From a virus (Duplodnaviria; Caudoviricetes): a stretch of 38,208 nucleotides of DNA. Below the pieces are notes generated by a model. It had not been told where the DNA came from. It was given only the letters and a program-made list of their open reading frames with translations, and did no database searches. Below are positions 22,256 through 30,392 of the stretch, in pieces (position 1 is the stretch's first letter; the number at the start of each line of letters is the position of its first letter). Location of the stretch: IMG/VR virus record IMGVR_UViG_3300014613_000052, positions 1-38,208 of that record; one strand, 5' to 3'. Position numbers and translations under genes: made by a program.

Positions 22256-24004
22256 TCACAGGGTTGCGGTGGGGGCGAAAGCGGCCTGCATGCGAGTGGC
22301 GATCGAACGGGCTTCGCCACGGTGGCCACGCTTGGTCGGGTGCGTGCCGTCCGGGCCGTTGTCGGTGCCTGCGTTGCCGGTTGCCAGGCTGCAGATCGAG
22401 ACCGTGACCGTGCCGTTGTCGGTGATGGCGCCACCTGCAGCCCAGTTCAGTGCTTGCCCTGCGGTGCCGGCCACGACCGCGACCGTGCGCTGCACACCGG
22501 ATGGGAAGGTGACAACGTAGTTACCAGCCGGGAAGGGCCATGAATCGACGAGCGTGCCGGTCGTGGTCGTGGCGACGTTGATGGCTGCCTGGCAGCCCAC
22601 GCCGGACACCAGGCCAGGGCCCGCCAGCTCGATGGGCTCACCAGCCGTGTGCGCAAAGGTCAGCGCATCGAAGGTCAGCACACGAGCGGTGGTGCAACCC
22701 GTGATCAACCGGACTTCGGCGGTGTCACCGTTGCCGATCTTGATGTACCAGCCGTTTCGAGCTGCTGCGACGCTGCCCAAAGCGATGATGGTCTCGATCG
22801 TCGGCGGCACGGTGGCCAGGGTCATGGTGGTGGCGCCCGCTGCCAGGTCAACCGGAACGGTCTGGGTCCAGGCGCCGAGGTAGTCACCGGGCGGCGCGGA
22901 AACCAGGTCGATGAACGGCGTGCCAGGCCGGGTCTCGGACACCGCCTTGATGGCATCGCGGATGGCGAACAGCCGCGACTTGGAGGTCTGCAGCACAGAC
23001 ACAGGCCAGAAAGGAGACGTGAAGAACATGTCCATGTCCGGGTCGTAGGCCATCGCGATGTCCAGCGCGGCCTGGGCGCCAGCGGAGACCTGCGCTGCTG
23101 TGGCGGTACCAGAGACGTCGTTGCCACCATGCACGAACCCGATGATGTCGCCCTTGCCCCACGCCTGCAGGTCCTGCAGCAGGTGAGTGCTGACGCGCGG
23201 ATTGCTCACGGGCTGAGTCGGGCTGTCGGTCGCGTAGTCGGCCGCACCCACGCTGCAGCAAGCGATGTCCCAGCCGGTCAGGTACATCAGCAGGGTGGCG
23301 AAGTTGTCCCCGGCCGGGAAGCTCACGCCCTTGTCCGAGATCGTGCTGCCGAAGGAGTTGACCGACAGGAAGGACCGAACACGCGGCGTGCGGGTTGCAC
23401 GCACAGCGCCCAGACCGTCCACCGTGACACCTCGGAATGAGAAGTTCGAGGTGCACTCGATGCGGATGGTGTACACGCCAGGTGCCCCCATGGTCACCAA
23501 GCCCTTGTAGACGTCCGCGTTGCCACCCGTGGCGGTCGTCGCAAAAGTCGCGCCGTTGGTCACGTACTCCCAGGCCCCGCTTGCCGTCTGGATCAGCACG
23601 CGACAGGCGTCGTTGCCTGCGACCAAGCCAGTGCCGTGAAAATCGATTTCAAAGCGGCCAGTGGCATCCGTGATGGTCAGCTCCGCTTCGGCGATCGTGG
23701 TGCCCTTCGCGCCAGTCGTCGGCCAAACGCCCATCTCGGCGTAGTTGTTGCCCCGGGTCCGCTTCCAGGGCGCGCCCAGCATGGTGAACGCGCCAGGCTC
23801 CCAAGGTGAGATCGTCTTCGGGCTGGTCAGCACCGATGCCGGTTGCGTGTTGGTTCCTGCGCTGACGGTCTGGCTGGTGACCGGCGGGGCAGCCATCAAA
23901 CGCGGCATCGTGAGCGGCCACATCGATGAGGCCAGCTCGCGGAAGGCTTGCTTGAAGGCTTGGGTGTTGATGGTCTCGCGGGAGAATTGACCGATGCGGG
24001 GCAT
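22256..24004 (-). CDS. Large SGNH/GDSL-like esterase-domain protein
   Basis: Block I 'SVNSFG', block III 'GGND', block V 'DGTHP'; GAGG SD; Thr/Gly-rich beta regions. Confidence 0.75.
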   Translation of the reverse strand: MPRIGQFSRETINTQAFKQAFRELASSMWPLTMPRLMAAPPVTSQTVSAGTNTQPASVLTSPKTISPWEPGAFTMLGAPWKRTRGNNYAEMGVWPTTGAKGTTIAEAELTITDATGRFEIDFHGTGLVAGNDACRVLIQTASGAWEYVTNGATFATTATGGNADVYKGLVTMGAPGVYTIRIECTSNFSFRGVTVDGLGAVRATRTPRVRSFLSVNSFGSTISDKGVSFPAGDNFATLLMYLTGWDIACCSVGAADYATDSPTQPVSNPRVSTHLLQDLQAWGKGDIIGFVHGGNDVSGTATAAQVSAGAQAALDIAMAYDPDMDMFFTSPFWPVSVLQTSKSRLFAIRDAIKAVSETRPGTPFIDLVSAPPGDYLGAWTQTVPVDLAAGATTMTLATVPPTIETIIALGSVAAARNGWYIKIGNGDTAEVRLITGCTTARVLTFDALTFAHTAGEPIELAGPGLVSGVGCQAAINVATTTTGTLVDSWPFPAGNYVVTFPSGVQRTVAVVAGTAGQALNWAAGGAITDNGTVTVSICSLATGNAGTDNGPDGTHPTKRGHRGEARSIATRMQAAFAPTATL

Positions 24005-24631: not shown

Positions 24632-24867
24632 AGGCGCACCCCCAGCTTGGTCAGGAAGCGCAGGAAGATGTTGATGGGCGGCAGCAGGAAGCAAAGCCAG
24701 GCATAGACGGAGCCGGGCAGGTGGCCCTGCAGCGCTTGGATGTTGTCCGCAAACGCGGCAACGATCAGGGCGGCCAGGTTGATCAAGATGATCTTGCTGC
24801 GCCACCACGGCTTGTCCGCTGGCATGGTGGCCAGCTCGCGCTCGATGTTGTCGTCGAACGCCATCAC
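24628..24867 (-). CDS. Holin candidate (2 TM)
   Basis: 79 aa, 'KPWWRSK' then two hydrophobic helices, between endolysin and spanins. Confidence 0.78.
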   Translation of the reverse strand: MMAFDDNIERELATMPADKPWWRSKIILINLAALIVAAFADNIQALQGHLPGSVYAWLCFLLPPINIFLRFLTKLGVRL

Positions 24868-25403
24868 ACCAGCCCCGGCAGATAGCTGGGCTTCTTACCC
24901 TGCTTGAAGACGGCTGTCAGCACCTGGCGGCGCGGCTTCTCGCCAACGCGTGCGATGGCGTAGTGCACCCAGGTGCCCTCGAAGATGACCTGGTCGAATT
25001 GCAAAGGGCTTTCAACCAGGCGGCGCACGATGTCGCGCGGCGAGCCGAAGCGCGGCGCGGTGAAGTCCATCGCGCGGCCATCCTTGTGCGCGCTGGTCGA
25101 TGAACGCAGCCGCGACATCAAGTCGGGTCGGATGTCGAGCAGCGAGAGGTCCTTGGCCTCGATCAGGTTGGTGACCAGGCCGTTGACGATAAGGGTGCGC
25201 AGGCCGGAGCTGATCAGGATGGGCGCATTGCCCAGCAGCTTGCGGATGTCCTCGCCATGCATGGCCAGGCGCTTGAGGTTCTCCACCTCAACGCCCATGG
25301 CCTCGTTGCGCAGCCCGTGCCGCGTCGCGGTCTGGCTGGCCTCGAACTCGCTCAGCCAGAAGTGCGGGCTGAGTTGGATGTCAGTGCGGGTGGGGGAAAT
25401 CAT
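24864..25403 (-). CDS. Endolysin, peptidase M15 family
   Basis: 'LSPHFWLSEF', 'ISSGLR', 'SAH..GRAMDF', 'WVH'; start set at ATG 25403 from promoter geometry. Confidence 0.9.
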   Translation of the reverse strand: MISPTRTDIQLSPHFWLSEFEASQTATRHGLRNEAMGVEVENLKRLAMHGEDIRKLLGNAPILISSGLRTLIVNGLVTNLIEAKDLSLLDIRPDLMSRLRSSTSAHKDGRAMDFTAPRFGSPRDIVRRLVESPLQFDQVIFEGTWVHYAIARVGEKPRRQVLTAVFKQGKKPSYLPGLV

Positions 25404-25437
25404 GCCCGCCAGTCTGGCGAGCATGACCCATATCAGG

Positions 25438-25458
25438 CAGGCTGAAGCGCTTCAGCAG
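25438..25458 (-). promoter_or_regulatory. Late promoter activator site upstream of lysis operon (P_lys-like)
   Basis: Identical 21-mer to 15163-15183. Confidence 0.8.
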
Positions 25459-25469
25459 CAAGCCTGAGT

Positions 25470-26009
25470 TCAGCCGTCGTTGACAGGGGTCAGCACGACG
25501 CCGCGCTGCTGATCGAGCCAAACCGAGTGCTTGCGACCACCCTTGTCGCGACCGTATTGAGTCAGCTTTCCCTTCACTGCATCATCAAGCGCGAGCATGG
25601 CCACAGCGTCCGAGTTAAGTCGGACACGCTGGATGTTCATGGTCGATGGGGGGACGCCGGGCATGTCCATGATGATCATGATCTTGGCCACCTCGCACGG
25701 ATAGGAGCACTCGATTGCGGTGAGCACGGATCCCTGGCTCACATGCAGTTGGTATCGACCGTCCTTTTGCCCCGCGTACTTGATCATGGTGACCTGGTTG
25801 GCCGCTAGACCAGCTCGGGCGTTGTCCTCCGTTGGCGCCATGGTGTACCCGTATTCATGCCCCTCCTGGAAGTCGTAGTTGTGGGCTCGGACAACCGGCA
25901 CAGGCGCAGTTTCTGCAACCGCGTTGGCTTGTGGCTGCGGGTCTTGCTTTTCACCCGAGCAACCAGCGAGCAGGCAAAGCACCACCCCAGCAATAAGCGT
26001 TGATTTCAT
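25470..26009 (-). CDS. Lipoprotein, probably lysogen-expressed accessory gene
   Basis: Signal peptide with lipobox LAGC; co-oriented downstream of repressor. Confidence 0.85.
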   Translation of the reverse strand: MKSTLIAGVVLCLLAGCSGEKQDPQPQANAVAETAPVPVVRAHNYDFQEGHEYGYTMAPTEDNARAGLAANQVTMIKYAGQKDGRYQLHVSQGSVLTAIECSYPCEVAKIMIIMDMPGVPPSTMNIQRVRLNSDAVAMLALDDAVKGKLTQYGRDKGGRKHSVWLDQQRGVVLTPVNDG

Positions 26010-26013
26010 AGAA

Positions 26014-26388
26014 CTACTCCCTTATTCCTTCCAAGATCTTTCCCGCCATCACCAGGCAACCGATACCAAGCATGAAGGTTGCCGTTTGATGGCCTGGCCA
26101 CGGCGACAGAACGGAGCTGATAGCCACTAGCCCCAGGCCTGCGGCAGTCAAAACTCCTACGCGCTTCTTCAGGGTTTGATTCCTGCGCGCAAGTGCCATC
26201 TGTTGATCAAACGCCGAGAGGTCCAGATGACAGTGCATGCAGTACTGCGTGTAACGCCACGTCTTTTTTCTGCATTGCGGGCAGTTTCTGGAAACCTCCG
26301 GATCGGTCGGCAAATGCATGGCTGGCGCATGGTTGATGACCGAGCCGTTGACTACCTGTCCGACATTCCCCCTGAAATCTTGTTGCAC
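26014..26388 (-). CDS. Zn-ribbon, 2-TM membrane protein with N-terminal RHIM-like motif
   Basis: GGAGG SD and GTG start; CPQC...CMHC; two C-terminal hydrophobic helices. Confidence 0.85.
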   Translation of the reverse strand: MQQDFRGNVGQVVNGSVINHAPAMHLPTDPEVSRNCPQCRKKTWRYTQYCMHCHLDLSAFDQQMALARRNQTLKKRVGVLTAAGLGLVAISSVLSPWPGHQTATFMLGIGCLVMAGKILEGIRE

Positions 26389-26428
26389 GAAACCTCCAGT
26401 GCACGTTGATCAAACGAATGGTTGGTTC

Positions 26429-27052
26429 TCAGCGTCTGCCCTTGGTTGTGTTTTTTGCGGGTGATGACGCTGCCACTTTGATGTTAACGGGAGCCGAGGT
26501 GTGCATGTCGCCGCTGACCACTTGCCCGACTGATCCATGGAATGTTTGCTTGACTCGGTGAGCTGAGCTGGCGCCTCTTACCCCCGCCAACAACTCTATT
26601 GCCGATCTCATTTCAGCGCCGCCTGATCGGTATGCCTCCAGCACTGCACGTTCGTTGGTGGACACATCGGCGATTGACTCAACGACGGACTCCACGCTGT
26701 TCGCATCACCCCATACGACGCCTTTGATGATCGGCTCCACGATCCTGCGTGTTGCACTGTGCAAGGCCATGGCTTGCATCTGATCAACCAGCTCCTGGAA
26801 CTCTCGCACGCGCTTTTCGTCTAGCTCGCCTCCTTCGTACATGGGGCCGATCTCGGCCATGGCCCACGCTCTAGAGATGCCCTCGCGCTCTATGAGCGTG
26901 TCGACTTCTTCCTCGGGCAGGGATCCTCGAATCTTTCGCTTGTTGAACGCGGCGTAAGACAGGCCGAGCTGCTCGGCCAGCTCCGCGTCTGACGTGATGC
27001 GTAAAGCTTTCTTGAGCCGTTCAAAAACAGCAACGACATGGGTGTTTTCCAT
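26429..27052 (-). CDS. Phage repressor (CI-type N-terminal HTH, no S24 autoprotease domain seen)
   Basis: 'FERLKKAL..SDAELAEQLGLS..AFNKRK.RGSLP'; divergent from Ner-like gene. Confidence 0.85.
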   Translation of the reverse strand: MENTHVVAVFERLKKALRITSDAELAEQLGLSYAAFNKRKIRGSLPEEEVDTLIEREGISRAWAMAEIGPMYEGGELDEKRVREFQELVDQMQAMALHSATRRIVEPIIKGVVWGDANSVESVVESIADVSTNERAVLEAYRSGGAEMRSAIELLAGVRGASSAHRVKQTFHGSVGQVVSGDMHTSAPVNIKVAASSPAKNTTKGRR

Positions 27053-27064
27053 AGCAGGGGGGGC

Positions 27065-27093
27065 TTGCGTGATATGTCTAATGTCTTTAGACT
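27065..27093 (+). promoter_or_regulatory. Early promoter (Pe-like), sigma70 type
   Basis: TTGCGT-17 bp-TAGACT in an AT-rich divergent intergenic region, with repeated TGTCT/AGACT half-sites as possible operators. Confidence 0.65.
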
Positions 27094-27131
27094 TTGGACA
27101 ACGTCATAAGACTTCTCATGCATAGCCTGCC

Positions 27132-27341
27132 ATGAAACAGCAGCCTCTTAAAACCCCCGAACAGGTGAAAGAAGAATTTGCCAGCAGTGGCGAGTCGATC
27201 TCTGCCTGGTGTCGTCGCCATCGCGTGACGCCATCCGCCGCCTACCGGGTCCTGACCCCCAACAGTCCGACGCCCTTGCGCGGTGAGTGCCATCGCGCCG
27301 CCGTCCTGCTCGGCATCAAGCACGGGGTCGTTCGCGACTGA
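27132..27341 (+). CDS. Ner-like DNA-binding protein (BcepMu gp16 family)
   Basis: 'TPEQVKEEF...G.SISAWCR', 'RGECHRAAVLLGIK' motif. Confidence 0.85.
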   Translation: MKQQPLKTPEQVKEEFASSGESISAWCRRHRVTPSAAYRVLTPNSPTPLRGECHRAAVLLGIKHGVVRD

Positions 27342-29590
27342 TGGCCGGCACGATGACTCTCTCAAACCACACCTTCGCAGGCAGCGATCACGCAAGCTGG
27401 CCGTGCGCAAAGGACCTGGCGGGCCTGCCAGGCTTGCCTGGAACCGAGCGCGGCATCCGCAAGCGCGCAAGCCTCGCGGGTTGGAACTGGGTGTCTGAGC
27501 CAGTGCGTGGGGGCTGGCTGGTCCGCTACGACCCCACAACGCTCCCGCCTGACGTGCGCTTGCAACTGGCGAGCAAGGCCGTTGCAGGCACCAGCGCCGC
27601 CGCCGCGCTCGAAACCCAGGCGCCGCTCGACCACGTCCAACAGCGCGCCAAGTTCATCGTCAAGGCCTCTGGCCGCACGATGGGCGATGCCGAGAAGCAA
27701 CGCACCCGTGTCCTGGTGCTCTTCCAGCGCTGGTGGCAGCACGTCGGTGGCACCCTGCACCCGGCCATCGAGCAGTTTGCAGCCCTCTGGACAGCCGGCC
27801 ACATCGAGGCGCCGACTGAGCTGCGCCAGGCGCTGCCCAAGATCAGCGCAAGCACCCTGCGCCGCTGGTGGCTGCGCATGCAGGAAAAGGGCAGCCTGCA
27901 GCGTCCTGATCACCCCAAGCGCGGCAAGTTCAAGGCCCTGTCAGGTGAGGTCGGCACCGCCACGCTCGCGGTGCTGGCCAGCAAGCCCCACCTGAGTGCT
28001 GCTGCGGTGCACCGCCTGCTGATCGACCACGGCATGGTTTCGGCAGACCAGATTCCGTCAGAACGCGCCTTTGCCCGTGCCATCGCTGCCTTCAAGCGCG
28101 ACAACGCACAGGCCTGGCTGGCGCACACCGACCCCGACGCCTGGCGCAGCCGCTACCTGGCAGCCAGCGGCGACGCTGCTGCCCACATCACGCGCCCCAA
28201 CGAAGAGTGGCAGATGGACAGCACGGTTGGTGACGCCATGCTGGTCGACCCCTCGACGGGCGAGATCCGCCGCCACCACATCGTGGCCGTGATCGACGTC
28301 TTTACCCGCCGGGTCATGTTCCTGGTCACCAGGACGTCCAAGTCCAACGCGATCGCGTCACTCATCCGCAAGGCCATCGACGCCTGGGGTCGGCCGGAGC
28401 GGATCAAGACCGACAACGGGTCGGACTACACGGCCGAGGCCCTGGAGTTCTCGCTGCTGCAGCTCGGTATCGAGCACCCGCTTTGTGAGCCCTTCGAGCC
28501 CCAGCAGAAGCCCTTTGTCGAGCGCGTCTTCGGCACGCTGCTGCATCAGCTCTTCCCGCTGTTGACCGGCTTCGTCGGTCACAACGTGGCACAGCGCAAG
28601 TCCATCGAGAACGCCCTGAGCTTCGCCCAGCGCCTGATGGGCAAGCAAGCCGTCGGTGCCGAGGTTGGGCTGCGCCTGACCCCCAACCAGCTGCAGGCCA
28701 TGATCGACAACTGGGTGCACGACTACCACCAGCGCGAGCACGGCAGCCTGGGCATCAGCCCAGCGGCCATGACCGATCGGCACCTGCGCGAGATCGTGCG
28801 CATCGACTCCCGCGCTCTCGACCTGTTCCTGCGCCCCATCGCGGCCGACGAGATCCGCACGGTGGCCAAGAAGGGCATTCGCCTGGACAACGGCTGGTTC
28901 ACCGCGCCCGAGCTGGGCGGCATGGAAGGGCGCCAGGTTCGCGTCCGCATGGACGAAGCCGAGATCGGCCAGGTGTACGCCTTCGACCTGGACGGGCAGT
29001 TCATCTGCACCGCCACCGACGTGACTCGGCTTGGCATCAGCGCCCAAGAGGTGGCCGCCAAGCGCAAGACACACCAGAAGAAGGTGGTCGACGGCTTCAA
29101 GGACGTGCTGCGCCACGCCAAGCGTGCCTACAACACCGACCAGGCCGTGCGCGATGTCTACCTCGACCGCGAGCACGCATCTGTCGAGAAGGCCCTGGGC
29201 GACAACGTGCGCCGCCTGCCGCCCCGCGAGACCCTGGGCACCACGCCTGCCATCGATTCGGCCCTGAACGGCCTGGCCAACCGTGGCAAGGCCCAGCAGG
29301 TGCCTGCCCACATGCGTGGTGCTGTCGATGCCGTGATGGCCCGCCTGGAGGCCGCTGAAGGTGGCGCCATCGAGCCCGCACGCAAGGCCGAGGTGTTCCA
29401 GGCCGCCAACACCCAGAACGCCCGCTACAGCACCTGGCTGCGCATGCGCAGCCGCACCGAACAAGGCCAGGCACTCACGCCGGCCGAACGCAACTGGTTC
29501 GACGCATACGCCACCTCGGCGGAGTGGCGATCCATGGAGCGCCTGCACGAAGGACAAGACCCCCTCGCAGCCGAAGGGGGCGGGGCCTGA
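27341..29590 (+). CDS. muA: Mu-type DDE transposase A
   Basis: N-terminal Mu DNA-binding domain (DLAGLPGLPGTERG), 'WQMD', 'TDNGSDY', 'KPFVER'; ATG overlaps upstream TGA. Confidence 0.96.
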   Translation: MAGTMTLSNHTFAGSDHASWPCAKDLAGLPGLPGTERGIRKRASLAGWNWVSEPVRGGWLVRYDPTTLPPDVRLQLASKAVAGTSAAAALETQAPLDHVQQRAKFIVKASGRTMGDAEKQRTRVLVLFQRWWQHVGGTLHPAIEQFAALWTAGHIEAPTELRQALPKISASTLRRWWLRMQEKGSLQRPDHPKRGKFKALSGEVGTATLAVLASKPHLSAAAVHRLLIDHGMVSADQIPSERAFARAIAAFKRDNAQAWLAHTDPDAWRSRYLAASGDAAAHITRPNEEWQMDSTVGDAMLVDPSTGEIRRHHIVAVIDVFTRRVMFLVTRTSKSNAIASLIRKAIDAWGRPERIKTDNGSDYTAEALEFSLLQLGIEHPLCEPFEPQQKPFVERVFGTLLHQLFPLLTGFVGHNVAQRKSIENALSFAQRLMGKQAVGAEVGLRLTPNQLQAMIDNWVHDYHQREHGSLGISPAAMTDRHLREIVRIDSRALDLFLRPIAADEIRTVAKKGIRLDNGWFTAPELGGMEGRQVRVRMDEAEIGQVYAFDLDGQFICTATDVTRLGISAQEVAAKRKTHQKKVVDGFKDVLRHAKRAYNTDQAVRDVYLDREHASVEKALGDNVRRLPPRETLGTTPAIDSALNGLANRGKAQQVPAHMRGAVDAVMARLEAAEGGAIEPARKAEVFQAANTQNARYSTWLRMRSRTEQGQALTPAERNWFDAYATSAEWRSMERLHEGQDPLAAEGGGA

Positions 29591-29663: not shown

Positions 29664-30392
29664 ATGAACAACCCTGCGCAACACAACACCCGCAAAAGCG
29701 GGATCGCACCCACCCAAACGGTGGCCGTGGCCATGGCCGCGATGGAACAGATCAAGGGCCGCGCCCATGGCATGCCTGGCTTGGGCGTGCTGTTCGGCAA
29801 ACCCGGCCTGGGCAAAACCAGCGCCCTGACACGCCTGGCACACCCGGCCGACATCAACGCGGTCTATGTGGCCTGCCGGTCATTCGAGACGACCAAGAGC
29901 CTGATGCAGCTCATCCTGCGCGAGCTGGGCGTGCCCATGAAGGAGCACTGGTCGGTCCCCGCCATGTTCGAGCTGGCCTGCCAGCACTTCGGTGAGCAGG
30001 GTCGCCCCCTGGTGGTCGACGAGGCAGACCGCATCGCCGAAAAGTCCGCGATCGAGCTGCTGCGCGACCTGCATGACATCGGCCAGGTGCCCATCCTGCT
30101 GGTCGGCGAAGAGCACCTGCAGCGCAAGCTGGTCAGCAAGCACGAGCGCTTCCATGACCGTGTCCTGGTCTGGGCCCGCGCCATGCCAGCAGACGACGGC
30201 GACCTGTCCAAGCTGCTCAACCACTACACCCCGGGCCTGCAGCTCACCGTCGACGCCCGCAAGGCGCTGCTGCTCAAGACCGGCGGCGTCGCCCGCAAGG
30301 TGGTCACCACGCTGCACAACCTGCAAGAGCTGGCCCGCACCCGTGGCCTGCAGTCCATCACCATCGACGAGCTGGCGGAGGTGCAGTCGTGA
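29664..30392 (+). CDS. muB: MuB-like AAA+ ATPase (transposition target capture)
   Basis: Walker A GKPGLGKT, Walker B LVVDEAD; follows transposase. Confidence 0.94.
   Translation: MNNPAQHNTRKSGIAPTQTVAVAMAAMEQIKGRAHGMPGLGVLFGKPGLGKTSALTRLAHPADINAVYVACRSFETTKSLMQLILRELGVPMKEHWSVPAMFELACQHFGEQGRPLVVDEADRIAEKSAIELLRDLHDIGQVPILLVGEEHLQRKLVSKHERFHDRVLVWARAMPADDGDLSKLLNHYTPGLQLTVDARKALLLKTGGVARKVVTTLHNLQELARTRGLQSITIDELAEVQS

Follow-up and report, generated by a model that had tools for sequence, protein, structure and literature searches.

A phage immunity repressor and the membrane protein encoded directly behind it carry matching copies of a G/Q/V-rich peptide of about 20 residues, the first at its C-terminus and the second at its N-terminus. 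The pair is genuine and widespread, selection acts on it at the level of the peptide, and it is apparently undescribed; by analogy it may work like an amyloid-signalling pair. The repressors of Mu-like and P2-like prophages are not known to have a self-cleavage domain, and what induces these prophages in nature has long been a gap. The pair provides a precise handle on it, because the two peptides are just 20 residues long and occur in isolated phages, BcepMu among them.

The repressor locus of a Mu-like genome

The window (the whole stretch of DNA analysed) is a virus genome of 38,208 bp with an estimated completeness of 100 %, and by its gene content it is a Mu-like transposable phage. The features of the locus are as follows.

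24864-25424, M15 endolysin (profile matches)
25470..26009, minus strand, predicted lipoprotein of 179 aa (lipobox with Cys17), co-oriented with the pair
26014..26388, minus strand, partner of 124 aa (N-terminal motif, Zn ribbon, two predicted transmembrane helices)
26032..26160, minus strand, two predicted transmembrane (TM) helices of the partner, about residues 77-93 and 103-119 (hydrophobicity and model)
26230..26283, minus strand, CxxC..CxxC zinc ribbon of the partner, C36-C53 (DZR, E value 0.036, below the cut-off; model)
26323..26382, minus strand, motif copy 2, at the N-terminus of the partner (modelled with low confidence as a monomer)
26393..26397, minus strand, Shine-Dalgarno-like site GGAGG before the partner start (sequence)
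26429..27052, minus strand, immunity repressor of 207 aa (HTH, helical body, disordered motif-bearing tail, basic end)
26432..26578, minus strand, repressor tail, residues 159-207 (pLDDT < 50, predicted disordered as a monomer)
26489..26548, minus strand, motif copy 1, repressor C-terminus, about 20 aa, G/Q/V-rich (conserved in relatives)
26864..27031, minus strand, HTH DNA-binding domain of the repressor, residues 8-63 (Phage_CI_repr PF07022, E value 1.9e-6, above the cut-off)
27132-27341, plus strand, ner/Cro-like HTH gene (phrog_925, E value 1e-15), divergent from the repressor
27287-29590, transposase A (Mu-transpos_C, rve, HTH_Tnp_Mu_1; Pfam)
29664-30392, AAA ATPase (Pfam)

Three co-oriented genes on the minus strand, encoding the repressor, the membrane protein and the lipoprotein, lie divergent from ner, transposase A and the AAA ATPase. 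A Mu-like immunity repressor is recognised by this arrangement, in which the gene of an HTH protein points away from the operon of ner and transposase A-B. The GC content of this three-gene cassette is 0.55-0.58, compared with 0.65-0.69 in its flanks, and no sigma-70 promoter-like site was seen across 25300-27300. The lipoprotein stop is separated from the endolysin by a short inverted repeat (25436-25460, minus strand), perhaps a terminator or late-promoter element; a similar sequence occupies the same place in a near relative (L003). Among the late genes, a 582-aa ORF (22256-24004, minus strand) includes a stretch that by eye we take to be SGNH/GDSL-hydrolase-like, and it is possibly a moron or a tail-associated enzyme.

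Repressor tail and partner head (the N-terminal motif copy) share 11/20 residues by hand count, and six of the codons for these 11 residues differ while five are the same; positions, identity and codon differences all agree with those given in an earlier sequence-only reading. A profile of 36 partner heads, run against the 38-kb record, hit exactly two places, namely the partner head and the repressor tail (tail E value 1.2e-6), so the likeness is more than a chance match. Taken alone, the window pair (5/11 codons shared) is compatible with an old duplication.

In its AlphaFold model the repressor comprises the HTH and an all-helical body followed by the low-confidence tail, and both motif copies were modelled with low confidence as monomers. 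Neither an S24 nor a RHIM family match was returned for the repressor at E ≤ 0.1 (Pfam); the C-terminal S24 peptidase domain of lambda/LexA-type repressors is absent by both the Pfam scan and the all-helical model, as the sequence-only reading had held. With the repressor model as query, Foldseek returned no structure at E ≤ 0.001, just weak HTH matches, the best being phage 186 CI (E value 0.13). A PDB sequence search with the tail profile returned 0 matches at E ≤ 10, and an Atlas feature search with the repressor tail gave no usable match.

The partner gene starts with GTG, not ATG, and in the model of its product a head of low confidence is followed by a zinc ribbon of beta structure and a pair of long helices. 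Cysteines C36, C39, C50 and C53 of the ribbon are invariant in nine aligned relatives, and sequence, alignment and hydrophobicity together uphold the earlier assignment of a CxxC..CxxC Zn ribbon and two TM helices. The head is predicted to be cytoplasmic on account of the basic residues before TM1, the short loop and the positive-inside rule. An anti-repressor-associated domain (Ant/ORF6C type) is absent from the window partner, which has the Zn ribbon instead. No RHIM or HET-s match was returned by Pfam for any window protein or for the 36 partner heads, and membership of the RHIM family (PF12721) was rejected for want of a profile match. The third gene, described earlier as encoding a lipoprotein, does contain the lipobox cysteine.

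Distribution and co-variation of the two copies

The tail motif is kept in 7/7 close repressor homologues and the head in 3/3 partner homologues. A pattern scan of viral contigs returned 28 loci, of which 11 have a tailed HTH repressor followed by a head-bearing gene and two more also fit the pair (L017, with the repressor cut off, and L021, with two head-bearing genes in a row); the remaining 15 were by look chance matches or other genes. An alignment search with the XRE-type repressor gave 313 relatives, the best 80 of which were retained, partly chosen on the motif. A DNA-pattern scan of a genome collection yielded 120 loci, and we judged five of these to be real (L129 from Burkholderia, L144 and L186 from Pseudomonas, L195 and L227), the others being off-frame or antisense noise. 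The tail alignment was too variable to serve as a locus search query. Searching in reverse from the partner family gave seven loci, each with a tailed repressor upstream and all on contigs already sampled, which is consistent with the pair but not independent.

In total, 97 loci were anchored; the truncated L103, L195 and L227 were dropped, and the remaining 94 were reduced to 62 at <70 % identity (L248 and L262 were not parsed and G253 was not scored). A score rule defined a set of 41 pairs, leaving outside it 21 of the 62 loci, including the divergent matched pairs L051, L080, L069, L079, L091 and L078. On the point that the sequence-only reading had proposed to check, the motif pair is co-conserved in neighbouring genes of many phages.

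When the tail profile was run against 1.84 billion representatives, with a query that contained the repressor helix and was therefore biased towards repressors, 48 matches were obtained. The 47 that were scanned comprise 31 with an HTH family (HTH_3, HTH_31 or Phage_CI_repr), 14 with no family and two others, with no S24 domain listed among them; the C-terminal-motif protein was thus not of the Bell/HeLo-like, TIR, CHAT or other immune effector kind. Since the HTH families differ among tail carriers, the tail sits on at least two repressor types. A single relative (L259) has, by eye, an S24-like peptidase domain, and it lacks the tail.

Two isolated phages possess the pair, BcepMu (gp17/gp18) and the P2-like Ralstonia phage RSA1 (ORF35/ORF33), and in both it is annotated merely as a repressor and a hypothetical or transmembrane protein. 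In RSA1 (L266, 3080-4300), the tailed ORF35 and the head-bearing ORF33 are naturally set apart by an IS transposase that lies between them.

Tail and head occur together far more often than apart. A leave-one-out matrix made from repressor tails only (score threshold at least 8, downstream span 450 nt) reached the threshold in 53/62 tails and downstream of the repressor in 38/62 loci, compared with 0/62 on the reverse strand, 0/62 upstream and 4/59 further downstream. For the 62 loci plus 20 HTH relatives from genome searches (n=82), we counted 36 with tail and head, 18 with tail only, three with head only and 25 with neither (odds ratio 16.7, P=1.4e-6), a figure that ignores kinship and for which some tail-less negatives (L244, L245 and L251) are chromosomal HTH genes rather than phage repressors.

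The partner motif was undetected for 18/54 tailed repressors, the profile missing some divergent subtypes or broken partners, and from this count the partner would be dispensable in many phages. Loci with a full tail and no head-bearing neighbour within 450 nt are L040, L041, L043, L045, L047, L054, L076 and L093; the L267 repressor likewise keeps a full tail, and Pseudomonas phage Komp_PAO1_1 gives a similar match. Downstream of the repressor in L039, L110 and L078, a head is present in a frame that is apparently broken or short, which points to decay of the partner in some prophages.

The two copies also vary together. Across the 41 pairs, the likeness of cognate tails and heads exceeded that of non-cognate ones (z 9.1, 0/20000 permutations, median rank 4 of 41), and a motif-blind test over all 62 loci gave z 10.5, compared with −1.0 for control segments. 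The cognate partner outscored those belonging to the three closest repressors in 28/34 XRE loci (P=2e-4), and tail-tail similarity tracked head-head similarity after body similarity had been removed (partial Mantel r 0.61, 0/5000); relatedness was controlled by these two comparisons.

At identical residues, the codons were identical in 163/390 cases (42 %) for cognate pairs vs 4779/12427 (38 %) for non-cognate pairs. Codon identity is barely higher in cognate than in non-cognate pairs, which places selection on the peptide and rules out recent DNA duplication, as the sequence-only reading had held for the window pair. Tail type is uncoupled from the relatedness of the repressor bodies (Spearman −0.13); tail and partner may therefore travel as one swapped cassette, and judging from these comparisons they seem to move as one module. 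Such swapping is also what one would expect if the partner 5′ end had been copied from the repressor 3′ end and retained either fortuitously or as a recombination handle for moron swapping, with no contact between the proteins, and a few pairs do share many codons (e.g. 9/12 in L087). We consider a relic of this kind very improbable, as overall codon identity is near background, unrelated partner bodies keep the motif in frame, starting at residue 3-9, and tail-less repressors almost never have the motif downstream.

Several pairs represent matched subtypes: both copies have an extra glycine in L046 and L087, a proline at the same place in L003 and a different first strand in L097, L100 and L089, and L051/L080 and L099 represent further matched motif types. 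The C-terminal tail of the Mu repressor controls its sensitivity to ClpXP, and the tails studied here end in a basic stretch, both of which would suit a third factor to which the two motifs bind in common (a protease, adaptor or chaperone of the host), with the partner as a titrating decoy. A fixed host factor would not permit several matched subtypes, and we find this explanation hardly credible.

Partner bodies and third genes

The partners have in common the motif and, mostly, a membrane anchor, while on present predictions their bodies are interchangeable. The motif begins at residue 3-9 in 35/41 partners, and 12/41 partner genes have a 4-nt overlap with the repressor stop. A hydrophobic segment over the TM threshold marks 31/41 as predicted membrane proteins, with none in the other ten. 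Bodies with a Zn ribbon and two TM helices occur in the window, L014, L074, L006 and L010; others are plain two-TM proteins, or have a TM helix and a small periplasmic domain (phrog_6521), or are helical, with ORF6C/GemA matches below the cut-off in 9/38. The L051 partner matches the phage anti-repressor profiles phrog_245 (E value 3e-7) and phrog_2127 (E value 3-4e-7), and the shortest partners (45-57 aa; L095, L096 and L100) consist of the motif and a hydrophobic or amphipathic end, and nothing else. Of the Zn-ribbon membrane protein proposed as the partner in the sequence-only reading, the membrane protein thus stands and the ribbon is just one of several bodies.

The same reading had made the lipoprotein part of the sensing module, and this part does not hold. 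The third genes share no family (lipobox in 12/40, hydrophobic N-terminus in 13 more) and differ even between the near relatives L003 and L014, which rules out the lipoprotein as a fixed component; from these comparisons it is best read as an independent moron.

Within the motif, G, Q, N and V are about 2-fold enriched and L, K and P are depleted, with Ile enriched 1.1-1.3-fold only. This composition fits amyloid motifs and bears on the possibility of a split transmembrane regulator, in which tail and head would form a finite hetero-oligomer by strand complementation, and the partner would stabilise or localise repression as in a ToxR-like membrane-anchored repressor. The co-oriented, often overlapping genes would fit a lysogen that expresses both constitutively, the majority of partners are predicted to be membrane-bound, and the motif is short. 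A plain heterodimer, however, needs no homotypic match, and the partner is often missing; with the amyloid-like composition, these points make a split regulator unlikely in our view.

Known signalling pairs and a proposed switch

The motif resembles those of RHIM (RIPK1/RIPK3) and fungal HET-S/NWD2 in being short, homotypic and probably beta-forming, with a Gly-Gln core and flanking disorder. HET-s effectors have two repeats, whereas a second motif copy was found by profile in just 2/41 partners here.

The BASS1-10 Bell/NLR pairs, as described by Dyrka et al. (bioRxiv 10.1101/2020.01.06.895854), are enriched in Q/N/G/V and depleted in K/P/L. The repressor pair resembles that description in having a motif of ~20-25 aa at the C-terminus of the upstream gene product and the N-terminus of that of the collinear downstream gene, in the frequent gene overlap or short gap and in its Q/N/G/V-rich, K/P/L-poor composition, which vindicates the earlier remark that the layout matches amyloid-signalling gene pairs. 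Unlike BASS as described there, it involves neither an NLR nor a Bell protein, the upstream gene encodes an HTH phage repressor and the downstream gene a membrane protein, and it occurs in proteobacterial phages rather than in multicellular Actinobacteria or Cyanobacteria. NACHT/NB-ARC NLR or TGP domains were absent from the window partner and from all scanned partners. BASS/NLR membership was rejected for lack of an NLR and of a Bell-type effector, the motifs having been compared by described layout and composition.

Closer in setting is Bab/Agp (BASS11) of E. coli, a pair of adjacent prophage genes sharing a C-terminal/N-terminal motif, which from its description differs in having a pore-forming Bell-like effector, a TPR-GreA/B-PIN sensor and cell death as the output (bioRxiv 10.1101/2024.11.07.622273). 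It is the only experimentally tested case of amyloid signalling in a phage context found in our literature search, and as described it sits in a prophage defence hotspot. By the same token, the two-TM partner could be a membrane-damaging effector that the repressor, by way of the motif, restrains or sets off, serving abortive infection or killing after prophage loss. The low GC of the cassette relative to its flanks and a weak SLATT_1 match in the L006 partner (E value 0.14) are in line with such a defence or toxin-antitoxin role. Against it, PADLOC 2.0 returned no match for repressor, partner or lipoprotein at E ≤ 0.1, there is no Bell/HeLo domain, and the partner bodies are mutually unrelated, some being 45-57 aa long or lacking TM segments; we regard this role as quite unlikely.

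There are precedents for small proteins that inactivate a prophage repressor, either by moving it elsewhere in the cell or by making it aggregate, namely Qtip of VP882 and RstC of RS1/CTXphi (bioRxiv 10.1101/2019.12.16.877910). Capture of the repressor by a small protein, as proposed here, would be similar, and RstR likewise lacks an obvious cleavage domain. According to that account, however, Qtip binds the N-terminal DNA-binding region of its repressor and no shared motif is described, whereas the present pair has a homotypic C-terminal match and a predicted membrane-embedded partner encoded directly behind the repressor. In BcepMu, H2O2 treatment raises early gene levels 8-13-fold; the authors call the mechanism unelucidated, and the available text shows no link of this induction to gp18 (PMC2830190).

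The main texts of the BASS paper (10.1101/2020.01.06.895854) and the Bab/Agp paper (10.1101/2024.11.07.622273) contain 0 mentions of HTH, repressor or phage and of HTH, repressor or XRE, respectively. The available text of a 2025 motif-detection paper (PMC12261475) mentions neither HTH nor repressor, and in that of a review of signalling amyloids from 2026 the bacterial cases named are RepA, Rho and SSB, with no phage repressor (PMC13506858). A full-text literature search, whose scope excluded most subscription papers, found no description of a repressor-membrane protein motif pair, in keeping with the statement in the sequence-only reading that none was known for a phage repressor.

We propose, giving it about an even chance, that the membrane partner is a conditional anti-repressor that captures the repressor via the shared motif. 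Matching copies in the disordered tail and the partner head would stack as beta-strands in a RHIM/BASS-like manner, and the repressor would be trapped at the inner membrane by the membrane-tethered copy; homotypic beta stacking predicts that a self-like match is kept through sequence change. By analogy with BASS pairs, the C-terminal copy would mark the effector (the repressor) and the N-terminal copy the receptor (the membrane protein). Judging from the co-variation of the two copies, the partner copy probably co-assembles with the repressor tail, and a cross-beta or beta-solenoid assembly rather than a simple dimer is plausible by analogy, if somewhat short of probable. The tail probably serves repressor self-association too, because it persists where no partner motif was detected.

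The partner would be off in a quiet lysogen, though probably co-transcribed, and the cue would be read by its variable body (in the window the Zn ribbon, in other phages a periplasmic domain or a helical one of ORF6C/GemA-like type). Once activated, it would pull the repressor off its operators and allow transposition-replication without RecA. Granted binding, a partner that is off in the lysogen and switched by a cue to RecA-independent derepression has a prospect approaching even. If so, amyloid-type signalling would serve not just cell-death immunity but also the control of a transcription factor, and the cell membrane would be linked directly into the prophage switch. A more far-reaching version, which we think doubtful, is an amyloid-gated lysis-lysogeny switch across Mu-like and P2-like phages, in which interchangeable membrane sensors would nucleate cross-beta repressor co-assembly, induction would be all-or-none, RecA-independent and possibly heritable (prion-like), and the subtypes would form a specificity code between co-resident prophages.

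Further motif-bearing sequences were seen around some loci. A third motif-bearing gene lies behind the repressor in L008 (2328-2483 and 2480-2881) and L021 (1760-2890), and such extra genes suggest several partners per repressor; far-downstream motif matches occur in L076, L084, L087 and L237. L106 has a very divergent lysine-rich tail with a short stretch in common with the N-terminus of the next gene product, possibly an extreme motif subtype. In L012, L025 and L029 (about 2365-2622), an 85-aa ORF begins with a partial motif look-alike with no repressor seen, and it adjoins clamp and clamp-loader-like genes of T4-like phages.
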